Shown here: positions 4,827 through 56,057 of the stretch, one piece after another
How the letters are laid out: each line of letters starts with the position of its first letter
Position numbering within the stretch: the stretch's first letter is position 1
From: a virus
Lineage: Duplodnaviria; Caudoviricetes
Strand: one strand, 5' to 3'
Length of the DNA: 57,878 nucleotides
Virus record (IMG/VR): IMGVR_UViG_3300033149_000867
Location: 1 to 57,878 of that record
Program-made: the position numbers and the translations under genes
Notes under the pieces: generated by a model
The model's input: only the letters and a program-made list of their open reading frames with translations
The model's database searches: none
What the model was told of the DNA's origin: nothing

Positions 4827-5075
4827 TCACCTGACACCTCCATCATATTCCTTTGCATCATCATCTATTGTTTTAATTTCAATATTTTCGATGTTATATT
4901 TTTCTGTTAATTTCTTCAAAAACATAATTATTTCATTACCCCTCAATGTAGTTGTTTCATAAATTACATCTTGCGTAATATTGTCTGTGAAAATACATCT
5001 TTTCTTGACATTATCAAATAACACATTTATAATATTAGAATTTTCACCACCCTTCACGTTAATTACACACCACAT
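4827..5075 (-). CDS. Hypothetical protein
   Basis: ORF track; SD GGAGG. Confidence 0.7.
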   Translation of the reverse strand: MWCVINVKGGENSNIINVLFDNVKKRCIFTDNITQDVIYETTTLRGNEIIMFLKKLTEKYNIENIEIKTIDDDAKEYDGGVR

Positions 5076-9245: not shown

Positions 9246-11138
9246 TCAACACTTTGAGAAACCACATGTGCAGGTGAGACAGCCCTCTGAATGGGTCAAT
9301 GGTTTGTGGCAATGGGGACATAGTTCGCCGTTGTCGATTGTGCCATCCTCGTTGTTGTGGTTGTTTATCTCGTTGATGTATGTTAGGGCTTTTGCGATGC
9401 CATCTGGTATCGAATGGACATATTTGAATGTTGGGTCAAATTGTGTCTCTGCCTTGATGCCTTCGAGTTGCTCACAAACCTCTTCTATTGGTATCCCCTT
9501 CCTCAATGCAAGTGAAATTAATCGCCCAACCGCCTCTGTGAATGCACTAATGACCGTCCCACTCTTGCTAATCTCAATAAACACTTCAAATGGGTTCTTC
9601 ATTGTCTTATCTGAATAATTACAAATCACATACATATTTCCATAATAAGTTCTGACTTTCGCTGTCTTTCCATATCTCAAAACATTATCTTTATTATTAA
9701 TATTATTAACAACAATTGCTTCTTCTTTACGACTGCCTTGTCTATAAATAGTCAAACCTTTACATTTCAACGAATAAGCCATTTCATACGCCGAAATGAC
9801 GTCATCAACAGTTGCTTCATTTGTCATATTAATTGTTTTTGAAACACCAGCATCCACATATTTTTGCCAATGTGCTTGATGTAAAATGTGCCATTCCCAT
9901 GAAATTTCAGTTGCTAATTTATCGCCTTCAATTACTTTATATTTAATGTCGCCTCTTGGACTTTTAATTATATATTCGTTGGCAAATTTTGGTTCAATTG
10001 ATGGTGTTGTCCCACACAAAACACTAATTGTTCCTGTCGGTGCAATACTCATCAAACATACATTTTTACGACCAAGCCACTCTCTAATTTGTTCATTACC
10101 ACCTTCTAATTCTTCACTCATTTTAGTCAAAGTATAATACATTTCAAATCCAATTTCGTCAATTAATTTCAATGCATCTTCACTTTCATAAGGAATTCCG
10201 AGCCTAATTAAAAGCTCATGCCATCCCATCACTCCAACCCCAATCTTTCTATTTCTCATTACTTTTTTACGAATTTCATCAAGTGGATAACTACATAAGT
10301 CAATTGCTCTATCTAACATAACACCACATAATTGTGTGTAATAACGAAGTTTATCAAAATCAACATCATTTTTACTTTCATCATATAATTTAGCAAGATT
10401 TACGGATGCTAATGCACAACATTCGTATCCTTCAAGTGGTTGTTCGCCACATGGATTTGTCGCTATTATTTCACTACCAAAGTCTTTTAATGGATTTCCA
10501 TTTTGAATATGGTCTCCAAAAAGTAAAGATGGCTCACCATTTTTCCACGAATTCTGTGCAACTTTTTCAACAACATCTTTATTCCAACTTTTTAATCTAA
10601 CCGACAAATTCATATTTTTGAGAACACCCTCTTCATTCTTCGCAGTAATAAATTCGTCTAAATCCGCATGGTCTTCGTCTAAAATTGACATGAAAGCTGA
10701 ACGTCTTTGACCACCTTGAACAACTACATCGCCCATCGTATCAAACAACCTCATAAATGAAACTGAACCAGTCGAATATCCACCTTTTGAAATTGGAGAA
10801 CCTCGTGGTCTTAATGGACTGAAATTAATTCCAACACCACCACTCAAACTAAATATTTTTGCACTCGAATATAATGTGTGGAAGATACTGTCAAGACTGT
10901 CTTCAATTGGCAATACATAACAAGCAAATAATTGTGGATGTTTTGTCCCTGAATTTCTCAACATTGGGTAATTTGGCATTATGTAATGTTCGCTCATTGC
11001 TCTGAATAATTGATTTTCCAAATTTTCGTCATTCTGTGCAATATATCTGGCAGTTCGCCTATACACATCAATTGGCTCTTTATCAAGCCCCTCAACCATC
11101 AACCTTGTTCTCAAAATATATTGCTCAACTTCATTCAT
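9246..11138 (-). CDS. nrdJ: Class II (adenosylcobalamin-dependent) ribonucleotide reductase with C-terminal TSCPD/Zn-ribbon domain
   Basis: QLFACYV, GGVGINFS.LRP, QGGQRRSA, active site TNPCGEQ, SIAPTGTIS, VSKTIN, C-terminal CPHC...EGCLTCTCGFSKC; start moved to ATG 11138 (SD GGAGGT). Confidence 0.93.
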   Translation of the reverse strand: MNEVEQYILRTRLMVEGLDKEPIDVYRRTARYIAQNDENLENQLFRAMSEHYIMPNYPMLRNSGTKHPQLFACYVLPIEDSLDSIFHTLYSSAKIFSLSGGVGINFSPLRPRGSPISKGGYSTGSVSFMRLFDTMGDVVVQGGQRRSAFMSILDEDHADLDEFITAKNEEGVLKNMNLSVRLKSWNKDVVEKVAQNSWKNGEPSLLFGDHIQNGNPLKDFGSEIIATNPCGEQPLEGYECCALASVNLAKLYDESKNDVDFDKLRYYTQLCGVMLDRAIDLCSYPLDEIRKKVMRNRKIGVGVMGWHELLIRLGIPYESEDALKLIDEIGFEMYYTLTKMSEELEGGNEQIREWLGRKNVCLMSIAPTGTISVLCGTTPSIEPKFANEYIIKSPRGDIKYKVIEGDKLATEISWEWHILHQAHWQKYVDAGVSKTINMTNEATVDDVISAYEMAYSLKCKGLTIYRQGSRKEEAIVVNNINNKDNVLRYGKTAKVRTYYGNMYVICNYSDKTMKNPFEVFIEISKSGTVISAFTEAVGRLISLALRKGIPIEEVCEQLEGIKAETQFDPTFKYVHSIPDGIAKALTYINEINNHNNEDGTIDNGELCPHCHKPLTHSEGCLTCTCGFSKC

Positions 11139-11281
11139 TTTATTACAACCTCCAAAACACATGTTGTTATTAAAGATAATATGAATGTAAATGGTTTATA
11201 TATTAATAATATAATTAAACATATTATAGTAGTTATTATTAGTAAATATTTAATAAATAATTTATTCAACTTTATATTCAT
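11135..11281 (-). CDS. Small hydrophobic membrane protein (48 aa)
   Basis: Manual: MNIKLNKLFIKYLLIITTIICLIILLIYKPF...; GGAGG SD, ATGA overlap with nrdJ. Confidence 0.5.
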   Translation of the reverse strand: MNIKLNKLFIKYLLIITTIICLIILLIYKPFTFILSLITTCVLEVVIK

Positions 11282-11379
11282 TCCTCCTTGTTATTATTCA
11301 ATCTCTTTTGCCATTTTCTTAATCTCTGTAATTTTTCTCTTAACACCTTATTCATTCCAACTTCCTCTTCCAAACTTAT

Positions 11380-12180
11380 TCACCTCCTTAACCTTTTACT
11401 ATATTTAGTTAATATAATTTCTTCCAATTCATCACAAGAATATCTTGGCGTAAATTTCCAATACTTGTAGTTATATTTATAATGTAAATCATGTTCAATT
11501 TGTTTAATTATTTTCCAAAATTTTGGTCTTTCTTCGATTATGAAACGATGACCATCCATTTTCTTCAATGGACAAATCCAACATGAAATTCTGTTTGTTT
11601 GCTCGTAAAGACCACCCCAATCAAAACCATATTTTTCCATACAATAATTCAGACAATCCTCTTCATTCATGTTATATTTTTCTATTAATGGTGCTCTATA
11701 TATAATTTCATTTTCTTTGTTTTTTCGACAAAAGTATTTTGTTCTCTTAATTTCATCAAGACTATAACCAATATAAATAAAAAATTTTGAATAACCTTTT
11801 TCTTTTCGTAATTTGGAATAAAATTGTTCAAATGGTGTAATTTTCAAATAATTTGAACACCATCTGTATTTGTAAGTTGGAAAACCATGAGGGCATCCAG
11901 CATATTTACCACATTTGTGTTTGTATTCCGTCATATAGTATATGAAATCTCCGTTTTTGTCATATATTCGTATAATTTCCAAATCATATTTGTCAATTAA
12001 TATGTCATCAACGTGTTTTATGTGTTGGTGCATTTCTGGGTATTCAACACCAGTATCAGCAAATACAATATATAAGTTGTTTTTGTTGATTTTATATTTG
12101 TCATCTTCTAACATTTTGAATAACATTGCTGTGCTATCTTTTCCACCACTAAACGAAATGACATGACAATTCTTACTCAT
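11380..12180 (-). CDS. PAPS-reductase-family PP-loop protein (DndC-like), possibly DNA modification
   Basis: SFSGGKDS PP-loop, FADTG.EYP, RWCS..LKI.P, GYSLDE..R, RISCWICP. Confidence 0.85.
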   Translation of the reverse strand: MSKNCHVISFSGGKDSTAMLFKMLEDDKYKINKNNLYIVFADTGVEYPEMHQHIKHVDDILIDKYDLEIIRIYDKNGDFIYYMTEYKHKCGKYAGCPHGFPTYKYRWCSNYLKITPFEQFYSKLRKEKGYSKFFIYIGYSLDEIKRTKYFCRKNKENEIIYRAPLIEKYNMNEEDCLNYCMEKYGFDWGGLYEQTNRISCWICPLKKMDGHRFIIEERPKFWKIIKQIEHDLHYKYNYKYWKFTPRYSCDELEEIILTKYSKRLRR

Positions 12181-12183
12181 AAT

Positions 12184-12813
12184 TTATCCTCTCATTAACC
12201 TTAACTTATAAATCCTTTCAGCCAATACAACATCTTTTTGATAAATATGACAACATGTTGTAAAATCTATTATTTTTGAAATTTCGAATTCTGGAATTTT
12301 GTGTCTTACAAAATGATAAAGACCGATGATATTGGGTTGCCATGCATTCACCAAATCACGACTTCTCCAAACCAATGCCAAAGTATTTGAATTGGGTAAA
12401 ATTTGAATGAATTGCAAACAAGGAATTCCACCATCACCATTTTCAATTGCATTGTCATCAACCAAATAATTCCATGTATTTAAAATCATTCGCCTTGAAT
12501 ACCCACCTTCTTTCAAATACAAATTCCTCACATTTTCAACATTTCTATTTAGTCTTTCACCATAAGTATAATCGAAACCATATTTATTTTCGCCCTTAAT
12601 TATTTGTGTAATATAATCGTCAATTGACTTGAATTGTGTTAAATAATGTGTTTCTTTATTTTCAATTTGTTTAATCGCCTTTCCTTCCAATACGACATAT
12701 AAAGTTGAATATTTATAGGAATTGTCATTGGCGAATTCACCAAATTTGTAAATATCGGCTATTGCCTTTTCATATGCTTCGTGAAAGTCATCTGACAGTA
12801 TTGTCATCAACAC
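12184..12813 (-). CDS. thyA: Archaeal-type thymidylate synthase or dUMP-modifying homolog
   Basis: YTYGERL, SRR, catalytic PCLQ, RSRD, AWQPN, HIY; start moved to GTG/TTG at 12813/12810 after GGAGATGA. Confidence 0.8.
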   Translation of the reverse strand: MLMTILSDDFHEAYEKAIADIYKFGEFANDNSYKYSTLYVVLEGKAIKQIENKETHYLTQFKSIDDYITQIIKGENKYGFDYTYGERLNRNVENVRNLYLKEGGYSRRMILNTWNYLVDDNAIENGDGGIPCLQFIQILPNSNTLALVWRSRDLVNAWQPNIIGLYHFVRHKIPEFEISKIIDFTTCCHIYQKDVVLAERIYKLRLMRG

Positions 12814-12844
12814 CTTATCATCTCCTTTGAGTAAGTAATGGAGG

Positions 12845-12952
12845 GGGTGTGATGCCAAAAAATTGAGAGTTGTTAAAGCCTTCAACACCTGCACAAATTA
12901 AATCTAATATCGTCAAATAATATGTTAGCCGAGAGGGTTTGACACCACACCC
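12845..12952 (-). ncRNA. Putative structured RNA (5' leader of thyA or small RNA)
   Basis: GGGUGUGGUGUCAAA pairs with UUUGGCAUCACACCC (15 bp, 2 G-U on the minus strand), enclosing two further hairpins; just downstream of a promoter motif. Confidence 0.5.
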
Positions 12953-13709: not shown

Positions 13710-13892
13710 TTAAAATTTAACACCACAAATTTCTTCAAATCTCTTTGCAAATCTCTTTCTAAATTTTTCATATTTTGGTCGAATTCCATCATAAAAATTA
13801 CCATCACCAATTTCACAAATAATATTGTGTATTTCGTCCAATAATTTGTAATTTCTTTTGTAAAAGTTTTTATGTTCTAAAAACATTGTCAA
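13710..13892 (-). CDS. Small hypothetical protein, or -1 frame C-terminal extension of the E2-like gene
   Basis: Frame is open up to 13946; TTG start at 13892. Confidence 0.5.
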   Translation of the reverse strand: MTMFLEHKNFYKRNYKLLDEIHNIICEIGDGNFYDGIRPKYEKFRKRFAKRFEEICGVKF

Positions 13893-13927
13893 ATCATAAG
13901 TTCCATCTGTGTTTTCATAAATCCTCT

Positions 13928-14773
13928 CTAAAATGCCATTTTTAAATCACTAATAAACATCCAAAATTGATAGTCAATTTCATTAACAGATTTTCGAATT
14001 TCTACTTCAATTTCATTATCATCATCATAATTTTTAGTATAAATGCAATCACCCGAAAGCAACTTTGTTATAATGTAATCATAATTGAAAAATATAAAGA
14101 GCCTCTTTGCATCAGTAAAACCATCATACAAATTTGCATATTTCAATATTTCATGTATGCCATTTATCAATTCATTTGAATTTTTATAAACTCTGTTTTT
14201 TCCAAGACAAACCATATTGAAAATTAATGGTCTCCCATGTGAAAGTATATGATAATCATATATTTTATATTTTGGATAATAATACATATTTGCCTCAATA
14301 TTTGGATGAATTGAATATGAACAATATAATTCATCAAATTCATTTGGGATAAAAAACAAATCTCTGTAAAAACCGTATGTTTTATTTTTCTTCATTTCAA
14401 TCATTAATTCTGGTGATAAAAGTGTGAATTCTGGTCTATAAACATTTACATCCAAAACAATTGGCAAATAAATGGTATTTTCACTTGTAATTCCACATCT
14501 ACAAAAATAATTATATGGTCGGCTATTATTTATCATTACACCATCATATCTCAATAAATTCAAAGTGAAATTGTTGTTGCCAAGTGTGTTGAAAACATCA
14601 ATTTCATTAGAAAAAAATAATGACGATGAATAATCAATATTGTTATTGTTGTTATTGTTATTGTCATCACCAGCGTCATATACTCTATATACATATTTAT
14701 CTACCAATTCACGATAAATTCTTGTCATAATGTAGTTTTTATCTTGTGAATTTCTCATCAATTTACCATTCAA
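13928..14773 (-). CDS. Prokaryotic E2-like (ubiquitin-conjugating fold) protein
   Basis: HPNI ... VCLG ... ILKYANL pattern; operonic with JAB and ThiF/E1; TTG start at 14773 after GGAGGTGG; ends at a TAG that may be read through to 13889. Confidence 0.6.
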   Translation of the reverse strand: MNGKLMRNSQDKNYIMTRIYRELVDKYVYRVYDAGDDNNNNNNNNIDYSSSLFFSNEIDVFNTLGNNNFTLNLLRYDGVMINNSRPYNYFCRCGITSENTIYLPIVLDVNVYRPEFTLLSPELMIEMKKNKTYGFYRDLFFIPNEFDELYCSYSIHPNIEANMYYYPKYKIYDYHILSHGRPLIFNMVCLGKNRVYKNSNELINGIHEILKYANLYDGFTDAKRLFIFFNYDYIITKLLSGDCIYTKNYDDDNEIEVEIRKSVNEIDYQFWMFISDLKMAF

Positions 14774-15498
14774 AATACCACCTCCCATCTTTCCCAAAAT
14801 TCCTTAACATTTCCTTTCTTATTTTTGTCAAATTTACCCAAATATTGTCTGTAAGTCTCTTTCTCAATTTTTTCTTCAACGATTTTCTCATCAACCAAAT
14901 TCAATTTCATTGGTATTACTTTTATTTTGGGCTCAATCAACATGTAATTGTCTGATAGATTGTTATTTACAATTCCTTCTTCATCAAGAATTTCATCCAA
15001 GAAATCATTTAAACATTCACCATTTTCTCTTTCAAAACCCAATTTCAATGGTATTAATAGTGTTGCCATAACAAATTTATTATCTGTGTATAAAATTGAA
15101 CACATAAAGTTTTTATTAATGAATTCATAATCAGTTCTCGAAAATTCATTAAATCCATGTGGATGTTTATGAATAACGGTATTATAACCTTCTGTAATAT
15201 ATTCGGTCGTTTCGCTATTATCATATCGAATGGTTGATGAAGAAACTTTTTGTTTTGGAATTACATAATCATTGACATCTACAATGAAATTACCATCCTC
15301 ATTGTATTTTCCTTTTAACAAAATTGAAAATTCAAAATCTTCACCGACAATCGATGAAATTTCCTCCATAACATATCTAATTTTTCCACCAATTACGACC
15401 GTTGGTTCTATTATATTGTAAATATTGTTAATTAAATCATGACCCTAAAATTTCAAACTATTGTTATTCTTATTTTTACTCTTCTTCTTCTTCGTCAT
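14770..15498 (-). CDS. JAB/MPN+ metallo-isopeptidase with in-frame TAG at codon 18 (15445-15447)
   Basis: EFSILLKG...YVIPKQKVS...VIHKHP....FSRTD (E, HxH, S..D JAB motif); GGAGGT SD 8 nt before ATG 15498. Confidence 0.8.
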
Positions 15499-16837
15499 TT
15501 TCTAAAACCTCCTTGTTTAGATTGTAAATCCAAGAACCACATATTTTCTCAAATATTGTTGAAATATTGAAATTCACAACAAATTTTGGTAGAATTTCAT
15601 ATACATAAGAAAATCTAATAGTATCATCGATTTTATCAGCCATTGTGTTATAAAACACATCATCAATAATTGTTCTTATGAATGTGTAATCTAAAATCAC
15701 CAAATATGTTATTAAAAGAGCTGAAAACATTGCACCAAAAATCGATGAACCCTGTGTATAACCACGAATAACCCCATCATCAACCGTCATCATTGTATAA
15801 TCTTCAAAACCTCTTTGAATTGTTATGTTATGCCCATCATATCTCACCCTATAATATACGACATTGTATTCCTTAAATTTCTCTTTAAAATACTTCATTT
15901 CTTCATTGTTATTAGTAATTTCGTTGCTATCTCTACAATCAATCATAATCAACGGAGAACCCTTTGATTTGTAAAATTTATCACAAAGTAAATTATGTGC
16001 CGTTTCTTCAAATGTTCTGAAATTAAAACTAACTGCCAATTTTTTCAAATTTATATCTGGTCTAATAAGTTCAATTTTTCTTGAAATTGCAACAACCTTA
16101 CAATCATTTACATCATTCAAATCATAAATTGTTCTACCAACATTTGATATTTCAACATTATCACCATCAACCAAATACAAATTATTTGCACCAATTGATG
16201 CCAAAATGTATGAAACCCATGAACCAATCCCCCCACAACCAATAACCATAAAGCTCTCTGGAACTCTCATCTCAATTTCCTCATAATTTTCTTTTCTCAA
16301 CATTTTTTCAACCACATCAATGAACTTATCATAGTCATAACCAGCCGATATTGAACGTGCAATGCCGTCCAAACCCAATTCTGAAATATCTACATATTCT
16401 TCATTTTCCTCATAATTTCTATTGTCTGGTGTAATTGTATTTAGAATTTCATCCAAATCGCTTTCATTATCATCATTTACATTTCTCTCATTTCTATTTT
16501 TAAATATACCATCCATCAAAAACCCAATATATTCAACCTTAATACCTTTCATTCTATTTTTGTAAATTTGTTTGTAAAAATCCATCAAATATTCAACACC
16601 AGCTTCATTATAACTGTTAATTTCAACTTCAAGAACATCATCCAACGAATATGGGTATTTATTAACCGTGAGATATTCAACCTCACCATTACTCTTAATA
16701 ACCTTAACATAAGCATTATTCAATCCAATTCTTTTAGCAATTTTCTTCACATCTTCATGTTCAATTTTCTTCTTTTCTTCAAAATATCTTGCAATAAGTG
16801 AATAAGACTTTTTACCAACCTTTACTTCCAACCCCAC
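15476..16837 (-). CDS. Ubiquitin-like domain fused to a ThiF/E1-family adenylyltransferase
   Basis: GCGGIGSW, LVDGDNVEISNVGR, KV.A, IDCRD; the first ~80 aa have a beta-grasp-like pattern ending YNEAG. Confidence 0.8.
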   Translation of the reverse strand: MGLEVKVGKKSYSLIARYFEEKKKIEHEDVKKIAKRIGLNNAYVKVIKSNGEVEYLTVNKYPYSLDDVLEVEINSYNEAGVEYLMDFYKQIYKNRMKGIKVEYIGFLMDGIFKNRNERNVNDDNESDLDEILNTITPDNRNYEENEEYVDISELGLDGIARSISAGYDYDKFIDVVEKMLRKENYEEIEMRVPESFMVIGCGGIGSWVSYILASIGANNLYLVDGDNVEISNVGRTIYDLNDVNDCKVVAISRKIELIRPDINLKKLAVSFNFRTFEETAHNLLCDKFYKSKGSPLIMIDCRDSNEITNNNEEMKYFKEKFKEYNVVYYRVRYDGHNITIQRGFEDYTMMTVDDGVIRGYTQGSSIFGAMFSALLITYLVILDYTFIRTIIDDVFYNTMADKIDDTIRFSYVYEILPKFVVNFNISTIFEKICGSWIYNLNKEVLENDEEEEE

Positions 16838-16857
16838 TTTTAACCCTCCTTTTTTAT

Positions 16858-18102
16858 TTATTCAAAAATAGACAATTTCAAATCAATGTATTTTGCAAAA
16901 TCGAAATATAAATCTAAATCAAAATGCTCAACACCAACGTTATCATTGAACTTAAACAAATTTTCAACATTAAAATCTTTTTTCAATTTACTGTAAAATT
17001 CAAGATTTAATATTTCATTTGGGTCATTGTTATATGTCTTTAAAAATTTGTCAATTGCCTCACAATCATTTCTCACATCTTCATTCATATTTTCGCCACC
17101 AAACATAAAGTTATAATAGAAACCTTCATTTGACATTTCGTAATCAAAATAATTGAAATTCTTTACTATTCCCCATCCATCAATAATTTCGAGCCCATTC
17201 TCATAAATTTCAATAGAAACCCTCGCACCATTTGGAACACAATCTCTCTCACAATATCTTTTGATAAATTTGTTAATTTTCTTTGCCAAATTCTTATGTT
17301 TAAACAATTCATACAATCTCAATGTCGTGTATTGTGCCAAATAACCGTTGAATAAACCACGCTTCCCATCTATTATGTAATCCGTATAATTCATAATCTT
17401 TGGGCATAAAATATATTTGAAATATCCGTTTTCTTTATCTAATGTCGAAAAAACATCAAAAGAAAATATATTGTCAGATACCATTCTTTTTAAATGAGTT
17501 TCATTCAATTTGTAAGTTTCCCAAATACCAATCGGTGAAATACCAAAAACACCACCCGTAATTTTTCTCATTATTTCTTCTTTAAAGAAGAATTTATCAA
17601 ATTCACCATTTTTAATTTTTCTTTTGACATCACTTGTAAATAAACTATCGATATATGAATTAATAACATTTTCACCGCTTTCAGTTTCATGTTGCATCAA
17701 TGTTCTTGAATATTTAAACCCACCAATAGTCCCAACAAACATCCCAACAAATGCCCTATTATAATTGTTATCATCTCTAAAACCAATTATTGGGTTGAAA
17801 ACCCTATACAATTTTTGAACCGAATAACCACCATCAATCTCATTTATCAATATATGTTGTTCCTCTATTTTATCTGGAATTGTAAATGTATCTTTATATT
17901 TCATTTCTTTGTTATAATCTGAAATTTTCTTCTCTAACAAATTAAACAATTTATAATATACATAATTGGTTGTAAAACCTCTATATTTTGAACATTCGAC
18001 AAAATATGGTGCATATATCATTTTCAAATTCTTTTTAATTTCCTCCTCAATCAGATAATCAATTTTTTGTTCTATACTTTTAAATTTCATATTTATCACC
18101 AC
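16858..18102 (-). CDS. Hypothetical 414-aa protein directly upstream of the Ubl operon
   Basis: Long ORF; no motif recognised. Confidence 0.8.
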   Translation of the reverse strand: MVINMKFKSIEQKIDYLIEEEIKKNLKMIYAPYFVECSKYRGFTTNYVYYKLFNLLEKKISDYNKEMKYKDTFTIPDKIEEQHILINEIDGGYSVQKLYRVFNPIIGFRDDNNYNRAFVGMFVGTIGGFKYSRTLMQHETESGENVINSYIDSLFTSDVKRKIKNGEFDKFFFKEEIMRKITGGVFGISPIGIWETYKLNETHLKRMVSDNIFSFDVFSTLDKENGYFKYILCPKIMNYTDYIIDGKRGLFNGYLAQYTTLRLYELFKHKNLAKKINKFIKRYCERDCVPNGARVSIEIYENGLEIIDGWGIVKNFNYFDYEMSNEGFYYNFMFGGENMNEDVRNDCEAIDKFLKTYNNDPNEILNLEFYSKLKKDFNVENLFKFNDNVGVEHFDLDLYFDFAKYIDLKLSIFE

Positions 18103-27803: not shown

Positions 27804-28025
27804 TTAAAGTGTTGTTAAGTGTGTTTCGAGTTTTCGAATAAAGCTTTCAAGAAATTTCCTCTGTTCTCTTGGTTTAACCAAGCTCAAAAGATATGCTAAA
27901 TAGAGTTCTAAACGTTCGTTTTCACTCATGTGCATCAATTCGTTTCTTGAAAACACCACACTTAACTCACTCTTAAAACTCATTCTTATGTTCTCTATTG
28001 CTTCACTCTTTTGCATCTGGATCAC
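27804..28025 (-). CDS. Small hypothetical protein
   Basis: AAAAAGTTTATAAAC BRE/TATA about 25 nt upstream. Confidence 0.6.
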   Translation of the reverse strand: MIQMQKSEAIENIRMSFKSELSVVFSRNELMHMSENERLELYLAYLLSLVKPREQRKFLESFIRKLETHLTTL

Positions 28026-38851: not shown

Positions 38852-39517
38852 ATGACGTGGAATAAAGTCCCACTACCAGACAAATGCGTTGAACTTATTG
38901 GAGGCTATATAAACACAAATCAAGACGTAAATTTCACATCGGATGAATTCACAATAATGGTAAGGTGTGCGTTTGAAGACCCATTCCACAACAACTTCCA
39001 AAACATTATTTATAAATCAGACAACGCATGGAAACTCTCTTATGTTTATGGCAGACCATACGCATTGATGAAAAATAGTGATGGGCAAACATTCGCAAAT
39101 TATTTGACAACTGAAATAAATTTCCAAACGGAAGACACGGGCGACATCGGAAAATGGCATTGGTTCTCCGTTGTTTATGATGGCGAGTGCATGACTGGTT
39201 ATTATAATAACGAAGTTATGAATGTGGTGATAACAGCAAGTGGGACACCAGCTTTAATTTCTAACAATGTTTTGGTTGGGAAATACGGCACGACTGATTA
39301 TGTCTTTATTGGCAAAGTTTCAGATGTCTTCATTGTTGATAGGGCAATTAGTGTGAGTGAATTAAATAAAATTATTTATTATGAGACAGAACCTTATGAT
39401 ACGTTAATTTCACTTAAAAACGAAGATATTACAGCTGATGGTTGGAGAGATGCCACATTTGTTGGTAATGCTATACCAAAACAAAGAAATAGTAGTGGCA
39501 TCTATGTTGAATTATAA
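38852..39517 (+). CDS. LamG/concanavalin-like virion protein
   Basis: FTIMVR, WHWFSVVYDG, F.GKVSDVFIVDRA. Confidence 0.7.
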   Translation: MTWNKVPLPDKCVELIGGYINTNQDVNFTSDEFTIMVRCAFEDPFHNNFQNIIYKSDNAWKLSYVYGRPYALMKNSDGQTFANYLTTEINFQTEDTGDIGKWHWFSVVYDGECMTGYYNNEVMNVVITASGTPALISNNVLVGKYGTTDYVFIGKVSDVFIVDRAISVSELNKIIYYETEPYDTLISLKNEDITADGWRDATFVGNAIPKQRNSSGIYVEL

Positions 39518-39529
39518 GGGTGATTAAAG

Positions 39530-41470
39530 TTGCCATCAATTTTATTCGTAAATACACGGGACGGAACAATAACACAAGACGAATTAAATGGAATATTAAC
39601 GAAGTTAAGTAGTGTTAAGAAGTTTGATGATTTGTTAATTGCGACACACATTCCAATTATACAGTATTCTGGACATTCTGATATGTTTATTGAAAATTAT
39701 GAACAACTTGCTTATGCTGTTAGTGAATATAATGTCGTTGGTTTTATTTCGGCTCATGACCACAATGTCGTTGGGTTGATTGAAGGTGATGAAATACCAC
39801 AATTGGGTTCTGATTGCGTGTTGCGTTTAGATTTTGATGAAGGTAGCGGAAATACAGTTTATGATAAATCTCCTTATAGAAATAATGGAACTATTTACGG
39901 TGCGTCTTGGGTTGATGGTAAGTATGGGAAGGCGTTGAGCTTTGACGGTGAGGATGATTATGTGGAAGTGCCCAATTCGGAGAGTTTGGATATTACTGAT
40001 GCGATTACGGTTGAGGTGTGGGTGAAACCAACAGTTGAACCAAGAGATTATAATATGATGTTTATCCAAAAAGGAGACGATACGAGTAATGATAGAACAT
40101 TCTATATTTACAACAGAGGTGTAAGCGATGAGTTGCACTTTGGTGGATATGATTCTTTAGGGAATCTTCATCTCGTGAGATTTAGTATGCCTTCAGATTA
40201 CAAAAATGGAGTATGGAGTTATTTAGTTCTTGTAAAGGATAGTAATGGACTTCGGGCATATTATAATGGGATGTTAAAAGGTTTTGATGATACATTTACA
40301 GAAAATATGAGAAGTAATACAGACCCAGTTATGATTGGAGTGGCGGGTACTTTACTTTACTTCAACGGCATCATCGACGAAGTCCGCATCTACAACCGAG
40401 CTTTAAGTGAAGAAGAAATTAAGGCACACTTTATCAGAGGAGCAATTCCACGATTTTCTGGGACAATACCACAATATTCATCACTTCATGGTAGTTATGA
40501 GGCGGAGGACTATGTTGGTTCTGGTGGAACTGTTGTCAATGATAGCGATGCCTCTGGTGGCAAAGCCGTAAGCCACGATGGGTCATCAAGCCCCACACAA
40601 ATGGTCTATTTCACCCTCTCAAACCTCACATCTCAACATTATTATGTTATAAGATTTAGAGGTAAAAGTGCAAGTAATGTTTCAAATTCTATGAAGTTAA
40701 AAATAAACGACACAACCGATAATATATTAATTAAAGATTTAATGTATATTTCAACTTCGCCATCTTATCAATGGTCATTTTATTATCCATTCGTTATACA
40801 AGACGGCTCACACACATATTCATTTGAAATAACGGCTGAAAATATTGGTGATGACATTACAAGATACGTCGATGTGATTGAAATTTACGATTGTGGGGAC
40901 ACACTATTCAGAGAATTCGAAGCAGAGGATTATGTGAGTGGCGATGGGTCGGTTGTGTCAGATAGTGATGCATCATGTGGTGAAGCCGTTGCACATACAT
41001 CCACCTCAAATGCCGAAATGATGGCTTTCACAACCAATGAATTTAAAGCTGGTAAATATTTGATGACTTGGAGGGCACGTTCTCCTTCGGGTGCATTAAC
41101 AGAAAGTATTGGTTTATGTGTATATGATATGACAACGAGTAGTTATGTAATGAACTACGTATATAGAGACACAGACACATCATATAAATGGGTTCAACCA
41201 GTTGAATTTACAATCCCAAATGACACACATACATATTTGATAAAAGCAATTGTCAATAATTTAGATGGTAATGAAAAAAGATTGGATGTAATTAGAATTT
41301 ACTCATTAGACACGGGTCGTCCAGTCAAACAAATTTATACAAGAAGAGCCGATGGTAGTTGGGGCGTTGATAGTGGTCATTCAAAACTAATATTAAATAA
41401 TGATGGGTCATTTACATTTTATACACAAAAATTCGAGGGAGGGTTGTTAAGAGATAAAGTTGAAATATGA
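39530..41470 (+). CDS. Adhesin-like tail protein: C-terminal half of a metallophosphoesterase + LamG + two CBM-like repeats
   Basis: IATHIP and FISAHDH; LamG DFDEGSG...FNGIIDEVRIYNRAL; repeats YEAEDYV...DSDAS. Confidence 0.75.
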   Translation: MPSILFVNTRDGTITQDELNGILTKLSSVKKFDDLLIATHIPIIQYSGHSDMFIENYEQLAYAVSEYNVVGFISAHDHNVVGLIEGDEIPQLGSDCVLRLDFDEGSGNTVYDKSPYRNNGTIYGASWVDGKYGKALSFDGEDDYVEVPNSESLDITDAITVEVWVKPTVEPRDYNMMFIQKGDDTSNDRTFYIYNRGVSDELHFGGYDSLGNLHLVRFSMPSDYKNGVWSYLVLVKDSNGLRAYYNGMLKGFDDTFTENMRSNTDPVMIGVAGTLLYFNGIIDEVRIYNRALSEEEIKAHFIRGAIPRFSGTIPQYSSLHGSYEAEDYVGSGGTVVNDSDASGGKAVSHDGSSSPTQMVYFTLSNLTSQHYYVIRFRGKSASNVSNSMKLKINDTTDNILIKDLMYISTSPSYQWSFYYPFVIQDGSHTYSFEITAENIGDDITRYVDVIEIYDCGDTLFREFEAEDYVSGDGSVVSDSDASCGEAVAHTSTSNAEMMAFTTNEFKAGKYLMTWRARSPSGALTESIGLCVYDMTTSSYVMNYVYRDTDTSYKWVQPVEFTIPNDTHTYLIKAIVNNLDGNEKRLDVIRIYSLDTGRPVKQIYTRRADGSWGVDSGHSKLILNNDGSFTFYTQKFEGGLLRDKVEI

Positions 41471-45872: not shown

Positions 45873-46252
45873 CGACAACTTTCTATAAATATGATGATGA
45901 AACTGTATATGTTGAAGTGAAATTGAAGAGGGCGAGAATAACGAGGCAGTTCGCCGTCTCGAATTTCCCACGTTTTAATTTGCCACCACTCTCATATCCA
46001 AGAGGTATGGAACGTGAATATTATGATTTGTCATTTTCAATCACAAATATTGATGATTTAAATAAAATTTATGAAATTTTCAAATACGGCACAAATATGG
46101 TTTATTTGTCAAGCGACGACGATATAATACCAGAACAAACAAAACAACCATTTGTTATTGAACGATTTTATGTTGAACAACGTGGTGGGCAATACAATAT
46201 TTGGGAAGTTTCAACGACAATTTTGAGAGCTTGGGAGGTGGTTGAAGAATAA
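45869..46252 (+). CDS. Distal tail (Dit)-like protein
   Basis: Position after tape measure, beta-rich. Confidence 0.55.
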   Translation: MTTTFYKYDDETVYVEVKLKRARITRQFAVSNFPRFNLPPLSYPRGMEREYYDLSFSITNIDDLNKIYEIFKYGTNMVYLSSDDDIIPEQTKQPFVIERFYVEQRGGQYNIWEVSTTILRAWEVVEE

Positions 46253-49200
46253 TGACGTTGCGTTATCATATTCTTGATGGCGACACTTACAAATATCTTG
46301 GCGAAGCTCTCAACTTCAAATATAGCAGAGGACTTGGCAAACTTGAACTTTGCACTTTCACAACATATAAAATACCAGAGTTGAAAGTTGGCAATGACGT
46401 CAATATTGTGATTTCAGACGACAAATACAATTGGTATGAATTGATGAGTGGATATATTCAAAAAATAACCGAAAAAGATGATTTGTATAGTGTTGAAGTT
46501 GTTGCCAAAACAATAGATTTAAAAAATGAAATGTTTAGACAGTCGCAATACATACTTTTGGACTTTGAAGATTATACAGAAGGCGAAACGCCTGATAAGA
46601 CTGATGGTAATTGGGATTTAAGTTCAACAACATTATCAGATGCAATTGATGTAAGAATTAAATCAAATTTATCGTTTAGTGATGTTGGCAAAAATACGCT
46701 GTTATTCAAAGATTTAGACACAAACGATAATTATTATGTTGAATATTCACATGGTGTTGAAGAGGTTTTGAAAGGGGTAATTTCGTTTGGTGTCTATATC
46801 GCACAGCTACATGAAATTTCAACTGATGTTGCAGTCCATTATTTTTCAGTTGATTTTGGGTCATCTGGGACTGGTCTCACATTTTCGTTTAGGAAAAACG
46901 CAACTACTTATGATGTTGAAATGAAAATAGAAAGTGGGGCGACATCATCTGGTTGGATAACTATTTACGATATGTCATCAACTGGGTATTCTATTGGTAA
47001 ATTTTTCAATATAACAGCATATTTCGATTATAATAACGATAGTTTGGCAGTTTATGTTAATGGCGAAAAAATATATGAAAATTCATCATTTTCATTTGAT
47101 GTTGGTGGGTCTTCAAAACTGATATTTGGTTCTGCAACATCTTATATTAGTGTATTCCTCTATGATAATATTGTTGTATATGATTTAACGGAACATATTT
47201 CAAACCCGTCCTCTAATTATATAAGGACAAAACCACTATTCAATCAAGAGACCGCAGACCGTCTTCTTTACTATCTTGGTTATGATGGGTGGTCATATTA
47301 TGGAAATGAAGATTTGTTTGACGATTATGCAATTAATATTTCGACAACTAACAATTCGAAATATTTTATGACTTCAAAAATTTTGAGAGGTTGCGTTGGT
47401 ATAAAACATTACAAATATGATAGTTTTAACAAAATTTTATATGTTGGCAAAGCCCAAGATGACACAACATTAAAATTACAATTGAAATTCAACGAAGGCG
47501 ATGGAACAACGGCATATGACGGCTCTAATTATAATAACGATGGAACGATAAATGGTGCAAAATGGGTCGAAGGTAAATATGGTTGGGCATTGGAATTCGA
47601 CGGAACTAATGATTATGTTGTTGTTTCAGATGATAGTAGTCTTGATATTACGGACGCTCTTACGATTTCGGCTTGGTTAAGACCAACTGACATAACAACA
47701 AATGCAACTTACACTATTTTGAGAAAAGACGAAAGTTATCGCATTTCTTTCCAAAATAACGGACAAACTCTTTCATTTGGTTTGTGGGATAGTGGTGGAA
47801 CTTTAAACGAACTTGATGTTTCTATTGACAGCGAAGAAATTGTCGATGGTAGATGGCATTTAGTGGTTGCGACTTACGACGGTTCATTTATGAAGTTATA
47901 TTTAGATGGCAAATTAATTGGATATAAAGAAGATATTTTTTCGATACAATCAACTGCAAACGACTTGTATATCGGTAGTAATGGTGGGTCATCCGAATTT
48001 TACAAAGGTTATATGGACGAAATACGAATTTACGCAAAGACATTTGACGAAGATATGGTCAGCGACTTGTATAAATTTGGTGAATACTATTTGACTGTCG
48101 ATTATGATGAAGACTATTGTAAAATTGGCGAAACAAATGGTTTGATGACTGTAAATGAAAAAAGAAAGGTTTTGAGTAGTGATGAACAATATAACAAAAT
48201 CACAATAACTGGTTATAATAAATCGAGGTTGCCAATATCGGCAAGTGCTGGTGAGGGCAAACCCGAAAAAACATTTTATTATGAGGAAATAGCAACAAAG
48301 AGTGAATTAGAGAAGTTGGCTGATGAAGTCCTCAATTACTACAAGAAACAAAGTGGTTATGAGGTTGAGGGAACATTTTACTGCTATGACCACACAAAAA
48401 GACCAAAGAAACTGCTACTCGAAACTACATCAAACATCGAACTCATCCAAAGCACTTACCCCATCACACTCCACACCAAGTTAATCCCCCTTGCCCAACC
48501 ATGTTCTCTCTTTACTGTGTATAATTCATATAATTTATCAATAGAAAATAACAAAATCGTATTCAGATATTACGACGGCTCAAATGTAAATGTCGTCCAA
48601 TCCGATGACATATCTTCATTAATAAATAAAAACGAACCAATTTCAATAACTTTGATGATTAGTGAAAATAAAGAAATTTCAGTTTATGTTGATAAAGTCG
48701 AAGTTATTAACTTTACGGCATCAACTATGCAAAAGATAACGAACTCTGATATATATTATGGATATATGTTGTTCCCAACAGTTGGGTCAATAGCAACCCA
48801 TCAATTTTTATATGAACTTTACATTTCAACTGACGTAAATAAAGATTTGTTGCCAAGAATATTTGATGGCGACTATCCAATGAGAAATGCGGTTGTTTTA
48901 CTAACTCCATATACAGTTGATAAAACAGATGAAATTTGGTATAATGCACTTTATCAGCGACCATATGTGTTTGGTTTGGTTGCCGATTTGCATATTGGTC
49001 AAAGTAATGGATATTATGATTACAATAAAAAATTGTCAAGAAAAATGTTGCTTGGCAAAACCGACTACAATATTTATTTAGGCGACTTATTTGAAGATAC
49101 AACTGACGATAGAAATGACTTCATAAATACATTCAAAAATTTGGAGGCAAAAGAACAGATATTTGTTTGGGGCAACCACGATTATGGCGATGGCACTAAT

Positions 49201-50700
49201 TATACAACTCACAAAACAAAACTTGAAAATAATGGCTTCAACGCAACACAACCTTATCTTTTACAGTTCAATGATAACAGATGGTTTGACTTGACAAATG
49301 TCTATGAAATTGTTGATTATGACACGGAAAATTACATTGGCGTTGAATTTGATGGTTCTGAACGTTATGACTTTACAAACAACGAAACATATTATACATT
49401 TACAAACAAATTAACAATTGAGACAACCGTTGTTCCAGATGATATTACAAATATAACTGGTATTGTCCAAAAAGTTTTGAATTTTGGATTGGACTTTAAA
49501 GACGGCGTTTTGAGATTTAGCATTTATGACCAATCATCAAATTCACATGTGTTAGAAAGCGATGAAAATGTTTTTGAAGTTGGTAAAAAATACGACATAA
49601 AATGCATTTATGAAGACCAAAAATTAAAGATGTATATAAATGGTTCGTTGCACAAAGAAATGGATTTACCAAACGACATTTATATACCAGACAATACAGA
49701 GACAATATATGTTGGGTCTGCTGGTTCATCTGGAAGTGCGTATTTCAAAGGCAAAATCTACAAACTCATAGTCAAAAACAAAAATGACGAAATTGTCTTA
49801 AATCTTGATAAAAATTCGGCGTCTAATTATAATTGGTATGATATTTCGCCGATAAGAAACCATCCGACCAAAAACGGCTCACCGTCCATCTCACAATACA
49901 ACAAAGCCTATTTGATAAATGGAACATCCGATTACATTCAAATTGAAGACCCACAAAATTACGAAAATGACTTCACAATTGAATTGATGTTTAAGTTGCA
50001 CAGTATTACTGGTTCTGATGTGATTGCGTGGTGTTCTGCGTCTGATTACACAAATAAAAGGTGGTATTTGGCAACACGTTTGAATAGATTAGCATTTTAC
50101 ATTTATGAAGATGATGCAACAGCTCATATGATAGTTGGCAACCAAACACTTGAAACTGACAAAATTTACAAAGTTCATCTTGTTAGAAAAGGAACAAAAG
50201 CTTATATTTACATAAATGGCGAACTTGACAACGAAATTGATTTGTATAATTTGTTTTCACTAAACAGCTCATCCACCTCTTACATTTATATTGGTAGTGA
50301 AATTGGCGTCGCACCAGCCGACATGACATTCTATTCACTTAAAATTTTCCCATATGGATTTACTGAAAACCAAGTAAGATATTCGCAATTTGCTTCGCTA
50401 TTGAACCCAGTTGTTGATTTGAGTGAATATGATGTGCATGACAACTACATGATAGATAATGCAAAACAGGTGAAGATTTCAAATATAACGGGTGGTGTTC
50501 AAGTCGTCGATGGCGACAACATCAAAATTGATGGCATCAACACAGTTAGAGAGGCAACCCATGTAAGATTTAACAAACAAATCTATCCAATTGACAAAAT
50601 TGAATATGAAAGTAATAAGAATTCGATAAAATATTGGTTTGACACAAAGAAAGTTGAAATAGGCGAAATCTTCCTATCGATGTTAAAAGAAATAGAGTGA
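46252..50700 (+). CDS. Tail tip/hub protein with about five inserted LamG-like domains and the N-terminal half of a metallophosphoesterase
   Basis: Hub segments (MSGYIQKI, YNKITITG...LEKLADEVL) interleaved with LamG repeats; ADLH, LGDLFE, WGNHD at about 48961-49285. Confidence 0.8.
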   Translation: MTLRYHILDGDTYKYLGEALNFKYSRGLGKLELCTFTTYKIPELKVGNDVNIVISDDKYNWYELMSGYIQKITEKDDLYSVEVVAKTIDLKNEMFRQSQYILLDFEDYTEGETPDKTDGNWDLSSTTLSDAIDVRIKSNLSFSDVGKNTLLFKDLDTNDNYYVEYSHGVEEVLKGVISFGVYIAQLHEISTDVAVHYFSVDFGSSGTGLTFSFRKNATTYDVEMKIESGATSSGWITIYDMSSTGYSIGKFFNITAYFDYNNDSLAVYVNGEKIYENSSFSFDVGGSSKLIFGSATSYISVFLYDNIVVYDLTEHISNPSSNYIRTKPLFNQETADRLLYYLGYDGWSYYGNEDLFDDYAINISTTNNSKYFMTSKILRGCVGIKHYKYDSFNKILYVGKAQDDTTLKLQLKFNEGDGTTAYDGSNYNNDGTINGAKWVEGKYGWALEFDGTNDYVVVSDDSSLDITDALTISAWLRPTDITTNATYTILRKDESYRISFQNNGQTLSFGLWDSGGTLNELDVSIDSEEIVDGRWHLVVATYDGSFMKLYLDGKLIGYKEDIFSIQSTANDLYIGSNGGSSEFYKGYMDEIRIYAKTFDEDMVSDLYKFGEYYLTVDYDEDYCKIGETNGLMTVNEKRKVLSSDEQYNKITITGYNKSRLPISASAGEGKPEKTFYYEEIATKSELEKLADEVLNYYKKQSGYEVEGTFYCYDHTKRPKKLLLETTSNIELIQSTYPITLHTKLIPLAQPCSLFTVYNSYNLSIENNKIVFRYYDGSNVNVVQSDDISSLINKNEPISITLMISENKEISVYVDKVEVINFTASTMQKITNSDIYYGYMLFPTVGSIATHQFLYELYISTDVNKDLLPRIFDGDYPMRNAVVLLTPYTVDKTDEIWYNALYQRPYVFGLVADLHIGQSNGYYDYNKKLSRKMLLGKTDYNIYLGDLFEDTTDDRNDFINTFKNLEAKEQIFVWGNHDYGDGTNYTTHKTKLENNGFNATQPYLLQFNDNRWFDLTNVYEIVDYDTENYIGVEFDGSERYDFTNNETYYTFTNKLTIETTVVPDDITNITGIVQKVLNFGLDFKDGVLRFSIYDQSSNSHVLESDENVFEVGKKYDIKCIYEDQKLKMYINGSLHKEMDLPNDIYIPDNTETIYVGSAGSSGSAYFKGKIYKLIVKNKNDEIVLNLDKNSASNYNWYDISPIRNHPTKNGSPSISQYNKAYLINGTSDYIQIEDPQNYENDFTIELMFKLHSITGSDVIAWCSASDYTNKRWYLATRLNRLAFYIYEDDATAHMIVGNQTLETDKIYKVHLVRKGTKAYIYINGELDNEIDLYNLFSLNSSSTSYIYIGSEIGVAPADMTFYSLKIFPYGFTENQVRYSQFASLLNPVVDLSEYDVHDNYMIDNAKQVKISNITGGVQVVDGDNIKIDGINTVREATHVRFNKQIYPIDKIEYESNKNSIKYWFDTKKVEIGEIFLSMLKEIE

Positions 50701-55406: not shown

Positions 55407-56057
55407 TCACCTCCTTATTTTTTGTTTTCTCGTCTTAATTATATTCTTCGCAGTTGTCTTACCAATTCCTTTAATTTTCATCAATTCACTTTCACTCATA
55501 GTCATTACATCTTCATAAGTGTATTTGCCCAAATCAACTGTCTGTGGTATATCTAATAGTTTCTTAAACAATAAATCTTTTCTCACAAATTTTCTTGATT
55601 TAGTTAAACCAACTTTACCTTCATCTGCCTTTTCCATCACTCTCAACATTGTATAGATGGCGTCATTCAAACTTTCAAACCACATTACAGCGACTTCTTC
55701 TCTGACAAATAAAGATGCAATATAACCATAAATTTGTTTTAATGGGACATTTAGATATTCATTTGGATGACCATTGATTAAAAGAACACAAAATTTATTT
55801 GTTTCCAACATTCTTGCAATTTGACTGTCCAATCTGTGTTTTTTAGTAATTGAAGAAGCCAAATCCATAAATGATTTCCTTTCGACAATACAACATTCAC
55901 TTTCGTAATCACCACATTCGAGTTTCTTCACCACGACATTATCAAATATTTTTTGGTCTAATGCCACCTTTTCAACAAACATCTTAATGAATTTGTCTTC
56001 TCTACTATCAATATATAATGTCTTACGTTTCTCATTCACCATTGACATCACCATCAC
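55407..56057 (-). CDS. ERCC4/XPF-family nuclease with helix-hairpin-helix
   Basis: IDSRE, GDY, VERKS..DL..S, IKGIGKTTA. Confidence 0.88.
   Translation of the reverse strand: MMVMSMVNEKRKTLYIDSREDKFIKMFVEKVALDQKIFDNVVVKKLECGDYESECCIVERKSFMDLASSITKKHRLDSQIARMLETNKFCVLLINGHPNEYLNVPLKQIYGYIASLFVREEVAVMWFESLNDAIYTMLRVMEKADEGKVGLTKSRKFVRKDLLFKKLLDIPQTVDLGKYTYEDVMTMSESELMKIKGIGKTTAKNIIKTRKQKIRR

Follow-up and report, generated by a model that had tools for sequence, protein, structure and literature searches.

A probable ubiquitin-like conjugation cassette in a tailed virus

Conjugation of ubiquitin-like proteins (Ubls) in prokaryotes has been studied mostly as host defence against phages, in CBASS type II, Bil and Bub. 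Here we describe a probable locus of this kind in a virus. The DNA is a complete IMG/VR virus record (IMGVR_UViG_3300033149_000867), linear and 57,878 bp long with an estimated completeness of 67%; all of it was analysed and we refer to it as the window. We conclude, with a probability a little under 0.6, that the window has a Ubl conjugation cassette belonging to a loose family of Ubl-E2-E1-JAB cassettes, and that its tag is fused through a spacer of ~100 residues to the activating enzyme (E1). As judged from the sequences, it is secure that the cassette is real and that it includes an E1 and a JAB peptidase. The Ubl-E1 fusion and the E2 are probable, based on weak alignments, motifs and context. 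The new element appears to be the tag fused to the front of E1, a layout absent from 23 related gene clusters.

The type I Bub operon, as presented by Ye et al. (2024 preprint, PMC11601596), encodes BubAB (a Ubl-E2 fusion), BubCD (a JAB-E1 fusion) and BubE. In that account, the JAB domain cleaves the Ubl-E2 fusion directly after a conserved Gly, and the Bub E1, which lacks a crossover Cys, requires an invariant crossover Tyr (PMC11601596). The window resembles type I Bub, as presented there, in that its tag would be made fused to an enzyme of the pathway and freed after a Gly by the JAB of the operon. It also resembles Bub in having an E1 with a single ThiF-like adenylation domain that lacks a crossover Cys and has a conserved crossover Tyr (Y360 in the window). 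In contrast to type I Bub as described, the window tag is on E1 and not on the conjugating enzyme (E2), the JAB is a separate protein, and the operon is encoded by a virus. In addition, the E2 candidate of the window has a Cys (C197) with an HPN motif, unlike the Ser/His given for Bub. No DUF6527 (BubE) protein was found in Pfam scans of the window open reading frames (ORFs); the window does not have the type I Bub architecture, and there is no membership in Bub at the sequence level.

Bil has the same four functions, as BilA (Ubl), BilB (E2), BilC (JAB) and BilD (E1), and the Bil E2 is thought to select targets without an E3, according to the same preprint (PMC11601596). Bil is treated there as a bacterial anti-phage defence. 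In contrast, the window cassette is on a virus, and its E1 contains a single adenylation domain and lacks a crossover Cys. The cassette is also like CBASS type II (Cap2/Cap3) in having a ThiF-type E1 core and a JAB partner, and the Foldseek matches of the core include Cap2 structures. The PADLOC models for E1-E2 (Cap2) matched the E1 core at 4e-13, over only ~80-120 of their 550-700 positions. Unlike CBASS, the window has no E2-E1 fusion, and in CBASS it is a CD-NTase, not a Ubl, on which Cap2 acts. No CD-NTase families were found in Pfam scans of the window ORFs.

The order of domains in the window E1 is like that of the Campylobacter jejuni type of ThiF, in which a Ub-like domain lies N-terminal to the adenylating Rossmann domain (Iyer, Burroughs and Aravind 2006, PMC1779556). 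As portrayed in that work, this type belongs to thiamine operons that have a standalone ThiS but neither JAB nor E2, and its Ub-like domain is considered not to be a substrate. Among viruses, the closest case in the literature is that of the Nidhogg viruses of Helarchaeota, which have ThiF/E1-like genes proposed to hijack the E2 and Ubl of the host (10.1101/2021.07.29.454249). Like the window, these are prokaryotic viruses with a ThiF/E1-like protein and a proposed role in ubiquitin-like tagging; the account of them describes E1-like genes alone, with no viral Ubl/JAB/E2 cassette. A full-text search of the literature, which did not cover supplementary operon lists, found no paper in which a virus is described as encoding a Ubl-E1 fusion together with JAB and E2; passages matched in the Asgard-virus preprint of Medvedeva et al. 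had no bearing on the question.

The operon, its activating enzyme and its peptidase

The cassette consists of three co-directional ORFs on the minus strand that encode proteins of 453 aa (E1), 199 aa (JAB) and 289 aa (E2 candidate) (Table 1). The JAB and E2-candidate genes overlap by 28 bp counted from a TTG start, or by 19 bp from an ATG at codon 4, and the E1 and JAB genes are separated by 106 bp. An earlier note on this DNA (the original prediction), made from the sequence alone, had called the three genes coupled. That description fits the JAB and E2 candidate but not the E1 and JAB. All of the sequence motifs it had listed were found in the E1, JAB and E2-candidate genes, and the type of operon it had proposed is supported by synteny with Ubl-E2-E1-JAB cassettes of other viral contigs. 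The left end of the region it had marked (13710-13927) contains just a 60-aa ORF, and we found no evidence for including it.

We assign the E1 solidly. It matches Pfam ThiF (PF00899) at 2.4e-17 with 63.3 bits (cut-off 28.1), in agreement with the earlier ThiF/E1 call, and has GCGGIG at residues 200-205, DGDNVEISNVGR at 224-235 and DCRD at 300-303. D224, D226, N232, K247 and D303 are invariant in 10/10 aligned E1s, and R235 is present. All of the cysteines are accounted for by positions 201, 246, 285, 301 and 433. That is, there is no Cys in the crossover region, and the observation in the original prediction that no catalytic Cys follows the adenylation core was correct (no Cys at 302-432). 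The catalytic crossover Cys of canonical thioester-forming E1s is absent from the window E1 and from 7 of the 10 aligned E1s. Crossover tyrosines are kept in most of the aligned E1s (Y360 in 8/10 and Y333 in 7/10). The E1s of loci L007 and L010 (see below) lack Y360 but have a Cys a few residues downstream, and that of L004 has such a Cys plus its Tyr.

The AlphaFold2 (AF2) model of the E1 core has a predicted local distance difference test (pLDDT) score of 70-95, with a confident stretch at ~190-340. Y360 is inside a segment of low confidence (346-361) that is probably mobile. A PDB sequence search with the E1 core found MccB, PaaA, TcdA, UBA5, ThiF, MoeB and Cap2, and Foldseek with the AF2 model of the core found PaaA, MccB, Cap2, UBA5 and ThiF. 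The best NCBIfam names for the E1 were ThiF and MoeB, every score being far under its cut-off, and the PRTRC ThiF model (TIGR03736) gave 14.6 bits against a cut-off of 144.75. In a search of 5.8 billion proteins the E1 had one match other than itself, P0002, which lacks residues 1-135.

The JAB is also solidly assigned. Its predicted active-site residues are complete (E13, H67, H69, S77 and D80): the motif HKHPHGFNEFSRTD at 67-80 has the form HxHx7SxxD, and the upstream Glu is E13 in EFSILLKG. The pattern H.H.{7}S..D occurs twice in the six frames of the whole window. The catalytic domain covers approximately residues 1-110, and the C-terminal half is acidic or helical. When 540 window ORFs were searched with a hidden Markov model (HMM) built from the JABs of related loci, the window JAB was picked out at 3e-7, and phmmer matched it at 1.2e-16 to the JAB that adjoins the E1 of locus L013. 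These two results and the exact motif uphold the JAB call of the original prediction. Direct matches to JABs were found in 8 of the 18 loci L013-L030, the best being L013. Matches to general models were weaker: 12.6-13.9 bits (0.05-0.13) for Pfam Prok-JAB, below the cut-off of 25, and 0.007 for PADLOC JAB. Word-index and exhaustive protein searches found no relative. Membership in the JAB family therefore follows from the motif and from homology to the relatives, one of which (L008) passes Prok-JAB.

Related cassettes on other viral contigs

Scanning with the back-translated nucleotide-loop motif of E1 identified a metagenome locus (L002) and 10 viral loci (L003-L012). A scan with an E1 alignment identified 18 viral loci (L013-L030), 6 of them on contigs already found, for a total of 22 viral contigs plus L002. 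Scans of viral contigs with single window proteins or with alignment A1 gave no related loci, a long motif pattern found nothing in the viral or genome collections, and the ribonucleotide reductase of the window found nothing as a query against genome contigs. The window E1 matches the E1 in 11/11 loci of L002-L012 and in 18/18 loci of L013-L030, and the reciprocal match of the L013 E1 to the window E1 was 4.9e-17. A JAB gene adjoins the E1 gene in 17 of the 18 loci L013-L030; in the same set the Ubl HMM matches 9/18 and the E2-core HMM 7/18.

The recurring gene map is a small protein ending in xAG, then an E2-like protein, then E1 and JAB in either order. The window is like these cassettes (L002-L030) in having homologous E1 and JAB proteins, an equal list of parts, a candidate tag with a terminal xAG and a candidate E2-like protein with the H(P/C)N...C(L/I)G motif. 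It differs in layout. The relatives have a separate Ubl gene and the order Ubl-E2-E1-JAB or Ubl-E2-JAB-E1, whereas the window has (Ubl-E1)-JAB-E2. The E2-like proteins are 257-584 aa long in the relatives compared to 289 aa in the window, where there is a 29-aa insert before the Cys. The C-terminal signature of the relatives' E2-like proteins is H(P/C)N...C(L/I/M)G or HxH...CWG. Three of the carriers are complete genomes of 107-110 kb with terminal repeats. The terminases of the carriers are only remotely like that of the window, which indicates that tailed viruses of diverse kinds have the cassette.

Several parts of the related cassettes match known families. The Ubl of L009 is above the Pfam ThiS cut-off (2.9e-6), the JAB of L008 is above the Prok-JAB cut-off (7.6e-7, 29.4 bits), and the E2-like protein of L005 matches UQ_con below threshold (0.0038). 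A profile of 13 E2-like C-terminal cores (A4) was compared with the PDB, and the best 60 of its 81 matches were all UBC E2 enzymes. The top match was UBE2C (4.1e-4), aligned over HPN, the catalytic Cys and the next helix. A profile of 9 Ubls (A5) had 9 PDB matches; the top three were two redesigned ubiquitins (0.0043 and 0.013) and SUMO (0.13), and the remaining six were weak and unrelated. Based on these UBC and ubiquitin-fold affinities, we infer that the family is a Ubl-E2-E1-JAB system. The predicted E2-like family has no name in the libraries, and its tie to UBC enzymes is at the profile level only.

The ends of the relatives' Ubls vary. There is a Gly at the terminal position in 11 of 13, as AG in 9, VG in 1 (L008) and KG in 1 (L004); the two without that Gly read AS (L016) and AA (L013). 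Residues continue past the terminal position in 7/13 (1-2 residues in four Ubls, 4 in L016, 18 in L030 and 58 in L008). The L030 Ubl reads DQAG followed by VDTWF..., and the window reads NEAG followed by VEYL.... Going by their predicted sequences, the Ubls of L008 and L030 must be trimmed before activation. Extensions past the Gly are a trait of the family, and the fusion in the window can be read as an extreme case.

The cassettes closest to that of the window (L013 and L002) have a tag-like protein of ~200 aa whose N-terminal part is winged-helix-like. In L013, which is on a 321-kb viral contig, this protein lacks a terminal Gly and has NKAA as its last residues. L010, which shares its contig with L018, has two tandem JAB paralogues beside E1. 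The ThiF enzyme of L022 is extended by 120 aa at its N terminus; its gene has a multi-pass membrane (transporter-like) protein as neighbour, and no JAB. From its sequence, it looks like an MccB-type peptide-modifying enzyme outside the Ubl cassette family.

The N-terminal domain of the E1

The N-terminal residues 1-80 are translated within the E1. The GTG start is preceded by a strong Shine-Dalgarno sequence, and the junction after G80 is in frame, without a stop and without a strong internal ribosome site. We considered a frameshift or lost-stop artefact as the origin of the fusion and rejected it, given the clean in-frame junction with no internal ribosome-binding site. A sequencing error could conceivably lie behind the fusion, which was seen in one contig.

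Alignment of profiles connects this domain weakly but consistently to the relatives' tags. With hhalign, residues 29-80 aligned to the last two thirds of a 13-sequence profile of the relatives' Ubls (P 0.0028). The alignment stops precisely at the relatives' terminal Gly, and none of 150 shuffles of the query (0/150) reached the score. Against the A5 profile, residues 28-82 aligned with P 0.01 and with the final AG in register. No Ubl-sized gene ending in Gly is near the operon besides the fused domain. The original prediction had described the first 80 codons as looking like a beta-grasp Ubl ending in NEAG. The NEAG is there at residues 77-80 and the alignments (P 0.0028-0.01) point weakly to a Ubl, but the beta-grasp fold gains no support from Pfam matches or from the AF2 model (pLDDT 31-59). 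In this model, all at low confidence, there are helices at 10-21 and 27-36 and strands at 43-48, 53-57 and 68-74; helix 27-36 and the three strands would be compatible with a beta-grasp domain in its second half.

The earlier note had also placed an acidic linker after the Ubl. There is such a spacer (residues 81-178), but its acidity is confined to the second half. The spacer is missing from every aligned relative: P0002 begins at ~136, and the other E1s begin ~15-20 residues ahead of GCGGIG. AF2 predicts low-confidence helices in it (pLDDT 35-49).

Several observations weigh against a fused tag. Residues 1-135 have no match in Pfam (including ThiS and ubiquitin), NCBIfam, the PDB or protein databases, and residues 1-84 have none in the ESM Atlas. 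The HMMs of the relatives' Ubls (HMMER) gave nothing significant on the window (E 7.2 and ~67). The AF2 model of the N terminus, in addition to its low pLDDT, has coil and helix and no beta hairpin in residues 1-22, and there is a weak Pfam match to a Homeodomain-like domain at residues 16-46 (0.0028). A Ubl-E1 fusion was found in 0/23 relatives examined, so the fusion in the window has no comparative support. Co-folding of two E1 cores with residues 1-80 scored 0.26 against a mark of 0.32 and gave no answer either way. The original prediction had called for AlphaFold and Foldseek comparisons. These were informative for the E1 core, which had a confident model and Foldseek matches, but the models of the E1 N terminus and of the E2 candidate were unusable for fold comparison. 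Finally, the E1 core has its best solved matches in MccB and PaaA, enzymes that modify peptides and are not protein-tag E1s.

MccB and PaaA have N-terminal peptide-binding domains. The N-terminal domain of the window E1 could likewise be a permanent, uncleaved accessory of the enzyme, either a regulatory Ubl-like domain or a clamp of the helix-turn-helix or RRE type. The true substrate would then be elsewhere: a Ubl of the host, the C terminus of a viral protein (Cap2-like), or a peptide (MccB/PaaA-like), which would be processed or deconjugated by the JAB. The resemblance of the E1 core to these two enzymes, the Homeodomain-like match, the two low-confidence helices and the MccB-like E1 of L022, with its N-terminal extension, transporter-like neighbour and no JAB, all agree with such an accessory. 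ThiF proteins with an N-terminal Ub-like domain are also described as co-occurring with a standalone ThiS, which is taken there to indicate a role other than substrate (PMC1779556). However, the NEAG end of the domain lines up with the terminal AG of the standalone Ubls in the relatives, and the surroundings of the operon offer no other Gly-ending candidate. Furthermore, the closest relatives of the E1 and JAB (L013 and L002) are in cassettes with tag-like and HPN...C proteins, and the JAB adjoins the E1 in nearly all of the loci counted above. We therefore consider an accessory domain unlikely, and prefer a tag fused to E1.

A small ORF 9 kb from the operon (82 aa) ends in EYDGGVR, with a Gly-Gly two residues before the C terminus. 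It has no Pfam match and could be a second tag-like protein, or nothing at all.

The E2 candidate

The 289-aa protein has HPN at residues 164-166 and VCLG at 196-199, with C197 as the candidate catalytic Cys. The pattern H[PC]N.{4,40}C[LI]G, which was composed after these sequences had been seen, occurs in 5 of 198 ORFs of at least 100 aa in the window and L002-L012, and all five adjoin an E1. In a MAFFT alignment with six relatives (A3), H164, C197, G199 and R202 are in invariant columns. With hhalign, C197 fell on the Cys of the E2-like family (P 0.018-0.044), the match being confined to the Cys motif; shuffles reached the score in 2/100, 1/100 and 1/100 runs. The original prediction of an E2-like protein thus had its motifs right (HPN, an insert of ~29 aa and VCLG), but no profile matched the protein, its AF2 model is poor, and hhalign went no further than the values above.

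Other results count against an E2. HPN and the Cys are unusually far apart: 30 residues separate N166 from C197, compared to ~7-8 in the relatives (an insert of ~29 aa). The protein is unmatched in Pfam (UQ_con, E up to 10), PADLOC, PHROG, NCBIfam and the PDB (phmmer), finds only itself among 1.84 billion representatives, and found nothing in the ESM Atlas. E2 HMMs of the relatives gave no E-value better than 0.26, and 2000 shuffles were not outscored by the real sequence. The E2-like proteins of the closest relatives, L013 and L002, have no similarity to it. The mean pLDDT was 34.5 in AF2, and the ESM Atlas model had a pLDDT of 0.28.

It is conceivable that E1 and JAB are the sole functional parts, and that the 289-aa ORF is an unrelated, fast-evolving gene. 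Any tagging would then be E2-free, as in archaeal SAMP/UbaA. The lack of database or HMM support for the protein, the non-canonical spacing and the failure of AF2 are what such a gene would be expected to give. This is nonetheless distinctly improbable: the motif is specific to genes that adjoin an E1, C197 falls on the Cys of the family with a score that shuffles seldom reach, the gene overlaps that of the JAB, and an E2-like gene belongs to the relatives' cassettes. We put the odds at about two in three that the 289-aa protein belongs to the viral E2-like family as a divergent member, in which 29 residues have been inserted after HPN and ahead of the Cys.

A sulfur-carrier pathway would also leave the 289-aa protein without a part. 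A ThiS/MoaD-like domain would be adenylated and thiocarboxylated by the E1 and trimmed by the JAB, as in the CysO/Mec+ type, and would serve sulfur chemistry tied to a PAPS-reductase-like gene. Neighbourhoods of this type are among those listed by Iyer et al. (PMC1779556). A PAPS-reductase-family gene is indeed in the neighbourhood (Table 1), but it is ~1.7 kb and several genes downstream, and neither a rhodanese nor a cysteine desulfurase nor a ThiG/MoaE partner turned up in Pfam scans of window ORFs of at least 70 aa. ThiF/MoeB-like chemistry typically involves an E1 that has no catalytic Cys, and ThiF and MoeB were the best, sub-threshold NCBIfam names; their scores, however, were far under the cut-offs. 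The profile of the relatives' E2-like family, moreover, matches UBC enzymes. We regard a sulfur-carrier function as highly improbable and return to protein tagging.

A possible mechanism

If the cassette conjugates a Ubl, the JAB would cut after G80, as is needed in the relatives that have 1-58 residues past the Gly. The freed C-terminal Gly would be adenylated by the E1 core. Because the E1 has no crossover-loop Cys, acyl transfer to C197 of the E2 would be either direct, as the original prediction had proposed, or by way of the crossover Tyr Y360, as in the Bub E1s. For release of a fused Ubl by a JAB and for an E1 without a crossover Cys, the Bub pathway offers experimentally tested precedents. 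The E2-like protein would then attach the tag to lysine residues in proteins of the host or the virus, and the JAB might additionally reverse tagging. Possible purposes are host takeover, counter-defence and virion assembly. The most specific version, in which a Ubl-E1 pro-protein is matured by the JAB and the tag is relayed from a Y360 oxyester to a cysteine E2 and onto host or viral proteins in infection, is tentative, and we hold it to be doubtful. If true, it would be a hybrid oxyester-to-thioester relay, so far undescribed.

Eukaryotic viruses tag proteins to their own ends. An apparently complete kit on the window suggests that prokaryotic viruses also tag proteins for their own purposes. 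With three genes, and a tag that is apparently within the E1, the compact cassette would be convenient for studying how a JAB releases a tag from its own E1, how an E1 without a Cys hands over to an E2 with one, and what a virus targets.

Table 1. Features of the window and of related loci (loci of relatives are given by their handles)
Feature	Coordinates	Strand	Basis or remark
Ubl-E1 ORF, 453 aa	15476-16837	-	
Candidate beta-grasp Ubl, E1 residues 1-80, end NEAG (77-80, G80)	16598-16837	-	hhalign to relatives' Ubls
Linker/insert, E1 residues 81-178, second half acidic	16304-16597	-	alignments A1, A2
ThiF/E1 adenylation core, residues 179-453	15476-16303	-	Pfam ThiF, alignment, AF2
Shine-Dalgarno sequence GGAGGG	16844-16849	-	6 nt before GTG start (16837) of Ubl-E1 ORF
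JAB/JAMM metallopeptidase, 199 aa	14770-15369	-	motif, relatives' JAB HMM, phmmer
Probable E2-like (UBC-type) protein, 289 aa	13928-14797	-	motif, position beside JAB/E1, weak alignment
Gene of 414 aa, no assigned function	16858-18102	-	end lies 20 bp upstream of Ubl-E1 start
PAPS-reductase-family gene	11380-12180		
Nucleotide-metabolism cluster	9246-12894	-	directly downstream of operon
ORF of 82 aa, end EYDGGVR	4827-5075	-	
ERCC4 nuclease domain + C-terminal helix-hairpin-helix, XPF/Hef-like layout	55407-56057	-	
Laminin_G_3 proteins of the tail region	39530-41470, 38852-39517, 46252-50700	+	
Ubl gene extended past Gly by 58 residues	L008:6001-6582	+	
Ubl gene extended past Gly by 18 residues	L030:1193-1648	+	
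Tag-like protein of closest cassette	L013:1764-2363	+	
Tag-like protein of closest cassette	L002:3172-3792	-	
Tandem JAB paralogues beside E1	L010:2521-4354	-	
ThiF enzyme with 120-aa N-terminal extension	L022:4138-5193	+	

Surroundings of the operon

The 414-aa gene upstream of the Ubl-E1 ORF may be on the same transcript. It has no match in Pfam, PADLOC, PHROG or NCBIfam, nor does it match the E2-like proteins of the relatives in their N-terminal halves. Clustered directly downstream of the operon are a gene for a ribonucleotide reductase that bears a TSCPD domain, the PAPS-reductase-family gene and a divergent thymidylate-synthase-like gene. These genes are part of a replication and nucleotide-metabolism module on the minus strand, made up of a class II-type ribonucleotide reductase, PAPS-reductase-family, thymidylate-synthase-like, Sak4-like ATPase, ERCC4+HhH (helix-hairpin-helix) nuclease and PD-(D/E)XK nuclease genes. 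The majority of the remaining window ORFs (at least 70 aa) had no match in the Pfam scan. A combination of ERCC4 with HhH, as in XPF/Hef, is more frequent in archaea and eukaryotes than in bacteria. This nuclease is the sole pointer to the domain of the host, and a hint of an archaeal one.

The window has no tRNA genes, and a scan for promoters and terminators gave no enrichment compared to shuffles. The G+C content across the window is 23-39%, and the minimum (0.23-0.27) is around position 28000. The sign of the GC skew switches at the same place (~28000), which is the junction of the minus-strand early and replication genes and the plus-strand structural genes. The plus strand has a tailed-virus module with a large terminase, portal, prohead protease, major capsid protein, tail tube and tape measure. 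Three proteins of the tail region have Laminin_G_3 (concanavalin-like lectin) domains, and one of them, of 1482 aa, has three Laminin_G_3 stretches and a calcineurin-like phosphoesterase domain.

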